Origin: Armatimonadota bacterium
Lineage (GTDB): Bacteria; Armatimonadota; SYMT01
DNA: 64,000 nt
Assembly: GCA_046292385.1 (NCBI GenBank)
Contig: JBKBRF010000013.1
Location: 32,001 to 96,000, forward strand
Direction: 5' to 3'
Position numbers and translations under genes: made by a program. The notes below the pieces were generated by a model. The model searched no databases, was not told the DNA's origin, and saw only the letters and a program-made list of their open reading frames with translations. Of the stretch, positions 1 through 53,851 are shown one piece after another. Position 1 is the stretch's first letter. Each line of letters opens with the position of its first letter.

Positions 1-1734
1 CGGAACAAGGTCGAGAAGGAGATGGGCGATACCCAGCGGGAGTTCATCCTGCGGGAGCAGCTCAAGGCGATCCAGCAGGAGCTGGGCGAGCGGGACGAGC
101 GCGGCTCCGAGATCGAAGAGTACCGGGAGAAGATCCAGAACGCCAAGATGCCAGAAGAGGTGGAAGAGCGCGCCCTGAAGGAGCTCGACCGCCTGGAGAA
201 GATGCCGTTCCAGGCGCCGGAAGGCGTGGTGGTGCGGACCTATCTCGACTGGCTCACCGCCCTGCCGTGGTCCGTCTGCTCCGAAGAGACGCTGGAGATG
301 GACAAGGCGCAGGAGACGCTGGACGAGGACCACTACGGCCTGGCGAAGGTGAAGGAGCGGATCCTGGAGTTCCTGGCGGTCCGCAAGCTCTCCAAGGAGA
401 TGCGCGGCCCCATCCTCTGCTTCGTGGGTCCTCCCGGGGTCGGCAAGACCTCCATCGGCAAGAGCATCGCCCGGGCGCTGGGACGCAAGTTCATCCGCGT
501 CTCTCTCGGCGGCGTGCGGGACGAGGCGGAGATCCGCGGCCACCGGCGCACCTACATCGGCGCGCTCCCCGGCCGCATCATCCAGGGGATCAAGACGACC
601 GCCACCAAGAATCCGGTCTTCATGCTGGACGAGATCGACAAGCTCGGGATGGACTTCCGCGGCGACCCGTCGTCCGCGCTCCTGGAAGCGCTCGATCCGG
701 AGCAGAACAACGCCTTCAGCGATCACTACCTGGAGGTGCCGTTCGACCTCTCCGACGTGATGTTCATCACCACGGCGAACCTGCTCGACCCGATCCCGGC
801 GGCGCTGAAGGACCGCATGGAGGTGATCCAGTTCCCCGGCTACACGGAGGAAGAGAAGCTCGCCATCGCGCGGGACTTCCTGCTCCCCAAGCAGCGCAAG
901 GAGAACGGCATCACCGAAGAGCACCTGCAGGCGACCGAGGCCGCCCTAATGCAGGTGATCCGCGAGTACACGCGCGAGGCGGGCGTCCGGAACCTGGAGC
1001 GGGAGATCGGCACCCTTTGCCGCAAGATCGCCAAGAACGTCGCCAGCGGGCAGGACGAGCTGGTGAAGCTGGACGAGGGCGACCTGAAGCCGTACCTCGG
1101 CCCGCGCCGCTTCCACTACGGACGCGCGGAGGAGAAGGACGAGATCGGCGCGGCGACCGGCCTGGTCTACACTGAGTTCGGAGGCGACGTGGTGGCGGTC
1201 GAGGCGAGCGTCCTCGCCTTCCACGAGCTGAAGCTCACCCTCACCGGGCAGCTGGGCGAGGTGATGAAGGAGAGCGGCATGGCGGCGATGAGCTACGTCC
1301 GCTCCCGCGCGCGCCTGCTCGGCTTCGACGAATCGCTCTTCGAACGGAGCGAAGTCCACATCCACGTGCCCGCCGGCGCGGTGCCGAAAGACGGCCCGAG
1401 CGCCGGCATCACCCTCGCCACCGCCCTCACGAGCGCCGTGACCAAGCGCCCCGTGAAGAAGGATGTCGCCATGACCGGCGAGATCACCCTCCGGGGCAAG
1501 GTGCTGCCGATCGGCGGGGTGAAGGAGAAGGTGCTGGCCGCCCACCGCGCCGGCATCCGCACCGTGATCCTTCCCGCGGAGAACGAGCGCGACCTGGAGG
1601 AGCTTCCGGAGAAGGTGCGCGCGGAGCTGAAGTTCCACCTGGTCGACCACATGGACCAGGTAATCCCGCTCGCCCTCCAGGACGCCCCCCGGCCCAGCCC
1701 CGCCTACGTAGGAGCGAAACCGGCTACCGCTTGA
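1..1734 (+). CDS. lon: ATP-dependent Lon protease (endopeptidase La), 5' end outside window
   Basis: Walker [30 protein letters not shown], catalytic PKDGPSAG and Lys in GGVKEK; frame open to base 1. Confidence 0.98.
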
Positions 1735-51176: not shown

Positions 51177-52913
51177 TCAGTACCCGACGGACGCCGAGTC
51201 GGGGTTGCGCGGATCGGAGGCGCCGAAGCGGAGCCCCGTTTCGGGGTCGACCAGCACGCCCTCGGCATCCCCCATGTAGGCCGGCCGCTCGGCCAGCTCG
51301 TGCCCCCGCGCGCGCAGCGCCTCTTGCACGTCGCGGGAGAGACCGTACGGCTCGTGACGCACCACGTCCGGCAGCCACTGGTGGTGGATGCGGGGAGCGG
51401 CGATCGCCTGCTGCAGGTTCATGTCGTGGTCGATCACGTTCAGCGTCACCTGCAGAACGGTGTTGATAATGGTGGGACCGCCGGGGCTGCCCACCACCAT
51501 GAAGAGCTTGCCGTCCTTCAGCAGGATCGTCGGCGTCATGGAGGAGAGCGGGCGCTTGCGGGGGGCAATGGCGTTGCGCTCGCCCTGGATCAGGCCGAAG
51601 AGGTTGGGGGAGCCCGGCTTCGACGTGAAGTCGTCCATCTCGTTGTTGAGCAGGAACCCGGCCCCTTTCACCGTGACGCCGCTGCCGTAGGCGGCGTTGA
51701 GGGTGTAGGTGACGGACACGGCGTTTCCGGCGCGGTCGACGACGCTGTAGTGCGTCGTCTGCGGCGACTCGTACGGGGCGGGATTGCCGGGTTTCACCTG
51801 CGCGCTGGGGGTGGCGCGCCGGCGGTCGATCTGCTGGAACAGCCTCTCCGCGTAGCCGGGAGAGGTGAGGCCGCGGACCGGCACTCGGACGAAGTCCGGA
51901 TCGCCCAGGTACTCGGAGCGGTCCGCAAAGGCGCGGCGCATCGTCTCGATCAGCAGGTGGTACCGCTCGGACGACGAGTGACCGAGCGACCGGAGCTCGA
52001 ACCGCTCCAGCACGTTCAGCATCTGCAGCAGCGCCACGCCGCCGGAGCTGGGCGGGGGCATCGTCAGGATCTCGTAGCCCCGGTAGCGCCCGCGCAGCGG
52101 CTCGCGTATCACCGGCCGGTACGCCTTCAGGTCTTCGGGCGTGATCAGTCCGCCGTGCGCCCGCATTTCGTCCGCCAGCAGGCGCGCCGTCCGGCCGGTG
52201 TAGAGCTCCTCCGGCCCTTCCTTCTGCAGGCGGCGGAGCGTGGCGGCGAGGTCCGGCTGCCGGAGCCGCTCGCCCGGCTCGTAGTAGTCGCCGTCCCGCT
52301 GGAAGATCCGGCGCGTCTCCGGGAAACGGGAGAGCAGCCGGGTCCGGCGCAGGTCGCCGGCCAGCTCGTAACTCACCGGAAAGCCCTCGGCGGCCAGCTT
52401 CCGGGCCGGCTCCACCATGTCGCTCCACCGGCGGGTACCGTACCGCTCCAGCGCCAGGGCGAGGCCGGCTACGGTGCCGGGGACGCCCACCGCCCGATAG
52501 CCGACCGTCGACGCCTCCGGGATCACGTCGCCTTTCGGATCGAGGTACATCTCGCGGCTTGCCGCCGCCGGCGCCGTCTCGCGGAAATCGACGACCGAAG
52601 CGGTGCCGTCCGCCATCCGGAGCACCATGAAGCCGCCGCCGCCGAGGTTGCCCGCGGCCGGATAGGTCACCGCCAGCGCCAGGCCCACCGCTACCGCCGC
52701 GTCGACCGCGTTCCCGCCCTTCCGGAGCACCTCCGCGCCGACCCGGCTAGCGTGCGCGCTGGCAGAGGCGACCATCCCATGCCGGGCCGCCACCGGGTAG
52801 CCGACCTGTCCCCACGAGGGACGAGGCCGCGCCGGAGGAAGCTGCACCAGCGCGCCCGCGGCGAGTGCCAGGGCGGCGATCAACGGAAGGAGGCGGAGAC
52901 GAGCGGCAGGCAT
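51177..52913 (-). CDS. ggt: Gamma-glutamyltransferase
   Basis: GGNAVDAA, GNLGGGGF, DFRETAP, nucleophile TTHYS, LNNEMDDF, RPLSSMTP, GSPGG. Confidence 0.97.
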   Translation of the reverse strand: MPAARLRLLPLIAALALAAGALVQLPPARPRPSWGQVGYPVAARHGMVASASAHASRVGAEVLRKGGNAVDAAVAVGLALAVTYPAAGNLGGGGFMVLRMADGTASVVDFRETAPAAASREMYLDPKGDVIPEASTVGYRAVGVPGTVAGLALALERYGTRRWSDMVEPARKLAAEGFPVSYELAGDLRRTRLLSRFPETRRIFQRDGDYYEPGERLRQPDLAATLRRLQKEGPEELYTGRTARLLADEMRAHGGLITPEDLKAYRPVIREPLRGRYRGYEILTMPPPSSGGVALLQMLNVLERFELRSLGHSSSERYHLLIETMRRAFADRSEYLGDPDFVRVPVRGLTSPGYAERLFQQIDRRRATPSAQVKPGNPAPYESPQTTHYSVVDRAGNAVSVTYTLNAAYGSGVTVKGAGFLLNNEMDDFTSKPGSPNLFGLIQGERNAIAPRKRPLSSMTPTILLKDGKLFMVVGSPGGPTIINTVLQVTLNVIDHDMNLQQAIAAPRIHHQWLPDVVRHEPYGLSRDVQEALRARGHELAERPAYMGDAEGVLVDPETGLRFGASDPRNPDSASVGY

Positions 52914-52980
52914 GGAGAGCGGCTCCTCGGGCCGGCAGCAGTACCGGAGCTACCTTGAGAATACCGCAGCGTAGGGATGC

Positions 52981-53490
52981 CTACTGGACGGAGACCACTT
53001 CGCGCACCTTCTCCCGCAGCGCCCGCATGTGGTCTTCGCTGTAGCCTTCGAAGTTAGCGGCCTCCCCGTCGCGCGTGAGAAGGATCGTCCGGGGAATCGC
53101 CGAGACGCCGTACTGGTCCGAGACCGCTCCCCCGTCCGGCAAGATGGTGACCGGCGTGTCCGTCAGGTACTCCGCCGAGCGGAGGAGGTCGGCGCTCTCG
53201 TCGGAGATCAGCACCACGCTGAGCCCGCGCTCCCCGTATTCCTGCTGCAGCCGGACGAGGTGAGGAAACTCCTCACGGCAGCCCGGTCACGTGGTACTGA
53301 AGAAGCTGAGCAGCACCGGCCCGCGCTCCAGCCGCTCCGAGAGGCGAAATTGCGCACCCTGGAGGGTGGTGGCGGTGAAGTCCGGACCCGGCGCCCGGGA
53401 GTCGCCGAGCCGGCGAGCTCCCTCATAGAAGAAGAGGCCGCCCAGCAGCAGCGCAACCACCGCGATGACGACTTTTGCCCCCGTGCTCAC
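52981..53490 (-). CDS. Membrane-anchored TlpA/ResA-like redoxin, probable selenoprotein (U at TGA 53287-53289)
   Basis: GGAAGGAG RBS + GTG; reading through TGA gives LLSFFSTT-U-PGCREEFPHL...YGVSAIPRTILL; both halves in frame. Confidence 0.85.
53253..53286 (-). promoter_or_regulatory. Bacterial SECIS-like hairpin
   Basis: UGA-ccgggc-ugcc-gugagga-guu-uccucac-cuc-guccgg; upper stem starts 11 nt after UGA, G in the loop. Confidence 0.7.
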
Positions 53491-53530
53491 CGGAACACTC
53501 CTTCCGCCCACTCCTCTTCCCAGTCTACCA

Positions 53531-53572
53531 GAAAGCAAGAGAGGCGCTCCGGTGGTTACCGGAGCGCCTCTC
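53531..53572 (-). terminator. Intrinsic terminator after the KGG gene
   Basis: 15-bp perfect stem 53539-53553/53558-53572 followed by ttgctttc on the minus strand. Confidence 0.75.
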
Positions 53573-53596
53573 GATCTGAAGCGGGCCTGCGGCCGG

Positions 53597-53851
53597 TTAA
53601 CCGGTCGCCCGGCGCTTCTTAACGCCCTTGTTGCGGGCGGCGATTTCCGAATAGAAGCGCAGGCCGTACTTCCGGATGACTGCTTGCGAGCCGCGGCGAC
53701 CGATCTTCGCCATGTGCTCGGAACCATACTTGTCCACCACCGCGCGGCCGCCGGTTGCGGCCTGCTCGGGCAGGTGGGCATAGCGGTCCGTTTCTCCGGA
53801 TTCGTTCAGTTGCTGCGCGTGCGTATCGTCTCGCTCCTCGACTTCCTTCAA
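53597..53851 (-). CDS. Small KGG-motif-like (GsiB/Em-type) general stress protein
   Basis: GGRAVVDKYGSEHMAKIGRRG, KYGLRFYSEI; GAGGAGG RBS, TTG start. Confidence 0.75.
   Translation of the reverse strand: MKEVEERDDTHAQQLNESGETDRYAHLPEQAATGGRAVVDKYGSEHMAKIGRRGSQAVIRKYGLRFYSEIAARNKGVKKRRATG

Follow-up and report, generated by a model that had tools for sequence, protein, structure and literature searches.

Membrane-anchored, extracytoplasmic thiol-disulfide reductases include ResA of Bacillus, DsbE/CcmG and TlpA. In the ResA, CcmG and TlpA family the reductase domain is on the periplasmic side, where a membrane transporter of the CcdA/DsbD type keeps it reduced.

Redoxins with selenocysteine (Sec) in the active site have also been described. 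Table 1 of a 2026 review (PMC13188914) has one entry for a 'Prx-like thiol:disulfide oxidoreductase, PF00578, UxxC/UxxU' and another for a 'Thiol:disulfide interchange protein, UxxC', both predicted with high confidence, and the ocean survey PMC2398784 reports 225 'Prx-like 1' UxxC selenoproteins. As these sources present them, selenoprotein catalogues have included UxxC redoxins of PF00578 from the first surveys onwards; one more gene of the kind is no surprise. In addition there is a curated family of ResA-like selenoproteins with a WAxxUGC motif (NF041054). Of the papers that a literature search on Armatimonadota and selenocysteine turned up, none, judged from the listing, deals with redoxins.

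The DNA analysed, here called the window, is a stretch of 64,000 nt to which all unprefixed coordinates refer, and G000 is the window's own genome. The window carries a gene that appears to be broken and is almost certainly an intact UxxC selenoprotein gene. A first-pass annotation had described two pieces of one reading frame separated by a single TGA, and both the ORF list and the sequence bear this out: the open frames 53287..53781 and 52981..53217, on the minus strand, share one frame (53289-53217 = 72) and the TGA at 53289..53287 is the sole interruption of the minus-strand frame 53490..52981. Translation from the GTG at 53490 with TGA read as U reproduces the 169-aa protein that had been proposed, together with its motifs (...PDFTATTLQG...LLSFFSTT-U-PGC-REEFPHL...YGVSAIP). 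The DNA around the Sec codon reads ...AGT ACC ACG TGA CCG GGC TGC CGT GAG GAG TTT CCT CAC... and the parts of the locus are as follows.

52981..53490, minus strand: complete predicted selenoprotein gene of 169 codons and a TAG stop, with a GTG start and a single in-frame Sec-UGA as codon 68
53498..53505, minus strand: Shine-Dalgarno-like GGAAGGAG, 7 nt 5' of the GTG start, read from the sequence
53428..53472, minus strand: hydrophobic core (residues 7-21, VVIAVVALLLGGLFF) of the putative N-terminal membrane-anchor or signal helix
53287..53289, minus strand: predicted Sec-UGA, codon 68, in the place of the attacking (N-terminal) Cys of CxxC, identical in contigs X2, X3 and X7 (see below)
53278..53280, minus strand: TGC for Cys71, the resolving cysteine of UPGC, an invariant column of a 37-row alignment
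53092..53094, minus strand: CCC for Pro133 (AIP-R-T), the thioredoxin-fold cis-proline, likewise invariant in the 37 rows
53539..53572, minus strand: terminator-like hairpin between the small upstream ORF and the selenoprotein gene, with 15 pairs and after them a T-rich tail

The GTG at 53490 was taken as the start because the longer ORF in the list runs, at its 5' end, into the upstream gene and the terminator-like hairpin; moreover, the N-termini of the orthologues line up with this GTG in the 37-row alignment. Third-position GC content (GC3) in the one frame is 0.84 before the TGA and 0.89 after it, so the coding signal runs on past the TGA. A scan for sigma-70 promoters found none.

The protein belongs to the AhpC-TSA (60.5 bits, cut-off 26) and Redoxin (54.7 bits, cut-off 26.6) families of Pfam, which match residues 35-142. 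The best NCBIfam model is the ResA subfamily, followed by DsbE, StoA and TlpA, all of them below cut-off; the scores for ResA, DsbE and TlpA proper were 55.9 against 170 (NF002854), 33 against 123.15 (TIGR00385) and 28.7 against 230 (NF047696), and with such scores no specific substrate can be assigned. Among solved structures the best sequence matches are a thioredoxin-family protein of Geobacter (3kcm) and then ResA (4nmu and 1st9). In these alignments U68 falls on the leading Cys of the motif, CPPC in 3kcm and CKPC in ResA, which confirms the earlier placement of the TGA at the attacking Cys of a CxxC site. In an alignment of 37 sequences (21 Sec and 16 Cys forms) the TGA column is an invariant Cys/Sec, the other invariant columns are G45, C71, P76 and P133, and E74 is found in at least 90% of the rows.

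The fold agrees with these matches. An AlphaFold2 model made from the 37 aligned sequences (mean pLDDT 92.1) begins with a helix (residues 3-29) and continues as a thioredoxin fold, in which U68 stands directly before the helix 69-88 and C71 lies in its first turn, i.e. U68 and C71 form a CxxC-type site at the N-end of helix alpha-1. The first matches of this model to the PDB in Foldseek are DsbE (3gl3) and entries of ResA, with target-normalised TM-scores of 0.83-0.86. A hydrophobic N-terminal segment is present in all seven orthologues and is preceded by K or R in most of them, although in the window's own protein the charges around the helix are ambiguous, with one K before it and R, R and R together with E and D after it. 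The N-terminal helix and the resemblance to the family suggest that the domain is extracytoplasmic, the outward topology being taken over from the homologues.

Compared with ResA (1st9, 4nmu), DsbE and TlpA, the protein has the same fold, CxxC-x-x-E-x-P motif and cis-Pro and a putative N-terminal anchor, but it has predicted Sec instead of the attacking Cys, its scores are far under the family cut-offs and its gene is not beside genes for cytochrome c maturation or copper-centre assembly. The members of NF041054 are likewise ResA-like redoxins with an active-site Sec; nevertheless the protein scores only 22.7 bits against that model's cut-off of 300, its motif is STT-U-PGC and not WAxxUGC, and it has 169 residues whereas the model has 354 positions. 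With the 'Prx-like' UxxC class, to which it belongs by family and motif, it shares the Pfam family (above the cut-off) and Sec as the first residue of UxxC. Cys homologues and a SECIS element directly after the UGA are common to both as well. The present group differs from that class in its predicted N-terminal membrane helix, in its restriction to one bacterial family among the genomes searched and in its alternation between Sec (two members) and Cys (five members).

The RNA 3' of the UGA, CCGGGC ugcc GUGAGGA guu UCCUCAC cuc GUCCGG, can fold into a hairpin with an upper and a lower stem.

53260..53276, minus strand: putative SECIS core, a 7-bp stem GUGAGGA/UCCUCAC with the triloop GUU, the stem being the codons for R-E-E-F-P-H
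53251..53286, minus strand: full local fold including the lower stem CCGGGC/GUCCGG, which shows no conservation

The hairpin begins 13 nt after the TGA and its loop 17 nt after the UGA. The SECIS-like structure described by the first-pass annotation holds for the upper 7-bp stem and the loop, which are conserved, but not for the lower stem, which near relatives and paralogues do not conserve: its 3' arm is altered in X2 and its 5' arm in X7, for which reason it was left out of the functional element, and it is missing from most paralogues. According to the consensus bacterial SECIS (the bSECISearch model), as quoted in section 5 of PMC13188914, the 3-nt loop starting with G-U, the 7-bp upper stem and the 17-nt spacing are all within limits, loop and spacing being at the small end of the allowed ranges. 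Another difference from the consensus is that the stem is here written in the codons of a conserved motif, R-E-E-F-P-H, and since the hairpin overlaps this peptide a part of its sequence conservation is protein-driven.

The same geometry, a stem of 5-8 bp around a triloop at positions +21..23 (numbered with the U of UGA as +1), was found in 26 of 30 Sec forms, which come from 12 genomes and are paralogues and kin and not independent samples, and in none of 18 Cys forms, a convenience sample of the Cys-form genes in the best-match-per-genome loci and not every Cys form. Of the four Sec forms that deviate, two have a loop of 5 nt (AGUUG), one has a stem of 4 bp and one (L058) has a different hairpin slightly further on. 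Loop sequences among the Sec forms are GUU, GUA or GGC. The stem varies in a compensatory manner, the variants being GUGAGGA/UCCUCAC, GUGCGGA/UCCGCAC, GUAUGGA/UCCAUAC, CUGUGGA/UCCACAG, AUGAGGA/UCCUCAU, ACGCGGA/UCCGCGU and GCGCGGA/UCCGCGC. In the 30-row alignment 94.3% of the stem cells are paired, compared with 79.7% in column shuffles (none of 500 shuffles reached 94.3%), and when the partner was slid by 1-3 columns as a control pairing fell to 34-62%. Cells with a double change number 30 where 8.2 are expected, and they are seen in four of the seven pairs. The substitutions in the 5' arm change amino acids (Glu to Ala, Arg to His), whereas the compensating changes in the 3' arm are mostly in synonymous third positions of Pro and His codons, e.g. 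CCU to CCG and CAC to CAU, a pattern that would not be expected from protein selection alone. Moreover the hairpin requires UUU (or UAU) and CCU, codons whose genome-wide share is 10% for Phe (UUU), 13% for Tyr (UAU) and 9% for Pro (CCU).

Across G000, 60 of 131,166 TGA triplets (0.05%) are followed at the exact distance by a stem of at least 7 bp and a triloop with G first, and five of these 60 sites are Sec-redoxin paralogues. A covariance model built from the 30 sites and run against the whole of G000 found only its eight training sites, the next hit being a Cys paralogue (E 0.058); the model adds specificity without adding new members. The folding energy of a 76-nt segment was no better than that of shuffles (z = -0.23), a measure that is uninformative in such GC-rich sequence, and the case for the SECIS therefore rests on position and conservation and not on stability. 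An Rfam scan of 52900..53600 with E values up to 10 returned no SECIS family and only weak unrelated matches near the upstream terminator hairpin.

The genome has the machinery that a selenoprotein needs and that had been expected from the locus. In the G000 assembly (7.04 Mb, 91 contigs, 98.45% complete, 68.9% GC) selA (578 bits), selB (367.5 bits), selD (362 bits) and a tRNA-Sec with anticodon tca (66.6 bits) were all found above their curated cut-offs. The selA gene directly adjoins selD, the tRNA-Sec lies beside selD, and selD has an in-frame TGA of its own (...VKCGGUASK...). These three genes form one cluster at C11:87438-90122 on the minus strand, which a tRNA-Ala adjoins, and SelD is itself a selenoprotein (CGGUASK).

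When 41 genomes of the same phylum were searched with the read-through protein, redoxin matches were obtained in 38. Among the matches listed, 30 have exactly one in-frame TGA, eight of them in G000, and in all 30 the TGA is the first position of CxxC (UPGC, UGAC, UPPC, UGFC, UAGC and others). The gene is thus one of at least eight Sec-redoxin paralogues in G000, and the seven others share the hairpin and likewise have their in-frame TGA where CxxC starts:

C18:43638-44006, plus strand: Sec-redoxin paralogue
C4:280352-280747, plus strand: Sec-redoxin paralogue
C17:7135-7527, minus strand: Sec-redoxin paralogue
C22:72657-73046, plus strand: Sec-redoxin paralogue
C6:130692-131108, minus strand: Sec-redoxin paralogue
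C14:76283-76687, minus strand: Sec-redoxin paralogue, first of a tandem pair
C14:77468-77872, minus strand: Sec-redoxin paralogue, second of the tandem pair

Several of these paralogues sit in longer open frames of 393-837 aa and are consequently fusion proteins.

A maximum-likelihood tree was built from the domains of 30 Sec and 21 Cys forms, 51 sequences in all; it is midpoint-rooted only and does not resolve the base of the orthologue clade. It places the window's protein, with support 100/100, in a clade of seven that has a single member from each genome of the taxonomic family. Sec is found in the members of G000 and G004, from two genera, and Cys in those of G001, G002, G003, G005 and G006, five genomes from four genera. 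In the genomes searched the group is restricted to this one bacterial family, and a search of genome contigs yielded no close orthologue, its eight loci being distant ones from named but unrelated organisms. The orthologue of G004 (L021 1438..1983, 181 aa), which is from another genus, has 46% identity to the window's protein and is syntenic: its gene follows the small protein and GT4 glycosyltransferase that also precede the window's gene. The TGA and the hairpin, whose conservation had been left to be checked in relatives, are both kept in it and covary among the relatives.

It could be argued that the locus is a pseudogene, in which a CxxC TlpA-like gene has suffered a recent nonsense mutation from TGC/TGT to TGA, or an assembly error, next to an incidental hairpin. 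The Cys at the Sec position in five of the seven orthologues of the family and the unexceptional folding energy of the segment would agree with this. The same alternative of a sequencing error or recent mutation had been raised at the outset, and it was checked in contigs of four public runs from four studies, compared over 52950..53550. The contigs counted (record 2 of X2, record 6 of X3 and record 14 of X7) extend over 53287..53289 and more than 31 letters beyond it in both directions; those of X5 were left out, their TGA not being spanned with 31 letters on both sides. The TGA and the upper stem with its loop (53260..53276) are identical to the window's in X2, X3 and X7, while each of the three differs at 7-10 other codons, about half of these changes being synonymous and the rest conservative. 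Because three other studies have the TGA in their contigs, amid nearby substitutions, it is not an assembly error. A nonsense mutation is further contradicted by the retention of TGA and hairpin in an orthologue of such low identity, by the seven paralogues of the same genome with TGA and hairpin in the same position, by a GC3 that is still high 3' of the TGA, by the intact cis-Pro and C-terminal fold and by the rarity of such a hairpin at such a distance, which by chance would follow about 5 in 10,000 TGA triplets. A pseudogene is accordingly very improbable. Just as little credit can be given to a UGA that is read as Cys or Trp by a near-cognate or mischarged tRNA, or to a TGA reassigned in the lineage, for which no observation speaks: TGA is the terminator of 840 of 2,018 long open frames with high GC3 in G000 and hence is not reassigned, a hairpin with SECIS geometry follows the TGA in the Sec forms only, and the full Sec pathway is in the genome, including a SelD that contains Sec.

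Granted a selenoprotein, its activity could still be that of a peroxidase of the peroxiredoxin-like kind rather than of a disulfide reductase of the TlpA/ResA type. The best Pfam family is AhpC-TSA, the corresponding class is named 'Prx-like' where PMC13188914 and PMC2398784 list it, and peroxiredoxins stand 34th, 40th and 46th in the list of fold matches. Yet the top 30 of these matches are DsbE, ResA and thioredoxin-like reductases, and the best NCBIfam match is ResA. The active site is also of the thioredoxin type, with UxxC at the N-terminus of a helix and the resolving Cys three residues on, and the protein matches ResA in the family Glu (E74) and the cis-Pro. A peroxidase is for these reasons unlikely, although less so than the two preceding alternatives. 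We consider it very likely that the region is one intact selenoprotein gene, with SelB/SECIS-directed Sec at codon 68, and that it encodes a membrane-anchored reductase like TlpA, ResA and DsbE.

The incorporation of selenium at codon 68 is a prediction from the sequence. SelB with Sec-tRNA(Sec) would bind the small hairpin that begins 13 nt 3' of the UGA (GUU loop, stem of 7 bp) and would insert selenocysteine at this codon during translation. The product would have an N-terminal membrane anchor or export helix and then a TlpA/ResA/DsbE-like thioredoxin-fold domain with the U-P-G-C site. By analogy with the family this domain would face the periplasm and act as a reductase, in which the selenolate of U68 may attack a substrate disulfide or another oxidised sulfur and Cys71 would resolve the mixed selenenylsulfide. 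The oxidised Se-S bond could then be re-reduced by a membrane electron transporter of the CcdA/DsbD type, for which a DsbD_TM gene of G000 (C84:7763-8395) is a candidate.

The neighbours of the gene are glycosyltransferases, a small hydrophilic protein and a gamma-glutamyltranspeptidase. The small hydrophilic ORF (84 aa, 53597-53851, minus strand) lies just upstream of the redoxin and is syntenic in G004 and G003; it had no NCBIfam match and in Pfam only a sub-threshold match to LEA_5 (E 0.021). The terminator-like hairpin, a strong one read as 53572..53539, comes after it. On the other side, 67 nt downstream and on the same strand, is the gamma-glutamyltranspeptidase gene (51177-52913, minus strand, 604 bits in Pfam). 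In the 12 loci tested this adjacency was seen only in the window's own and in none of the 11 related ones, and a functional link with the gamma-glutamyltranspeptidase was dropped, since the neighbourhood is not conserved. The conserved neighbours, i.e. the glycosyltransferases and the small hydrophilic protein, offer no clue to the substrate.

What is known of selenocysteine decoding and of TlpA-like proteins is left unchanged by this gene, which is an addition to the known UxxC class and a correction of annotation. Standard gene callers split the gene at the TGA and consequently the protein is missing or truncated in the annotation. The correction adds one entry to an apparently large selenoproteome, in which Sec-redoxins alone number at least eight. 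Moreover, the seven orthologues, of which those of two genera have Sec and those of five genomes (four genera) have Cys, are a convenient natural matched Sec/Cys experiment in a predicted exported reductase.

The distribution of Sec and Cys together with the shared element would fit an ancestral Sec-redoxin that was expanded by duplication and repeatedly reverted to Cys, a history that we put forward tentatively and do not hold to be probable. If it is true, the orthologues are a matched set in which the benefit of selenium to an exported disulfide reductase can be measured. The Cys-form orthologues of G003 and G001 have one shared neighbour each, either the small protein or the GT4 glycosyltransferase. 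Two other Cys forms, L023 (G005) and L026 (G002), retain a part of the hairpin's top (GGA-AUA-UCC and GGA-GUU-UCC, 3-4 bp), and both keep U-ending Tyr/Phe codons that are rare in their GC-rich genomes. These remnants may, as a very weak indication, be the relic of a lost SECIS.
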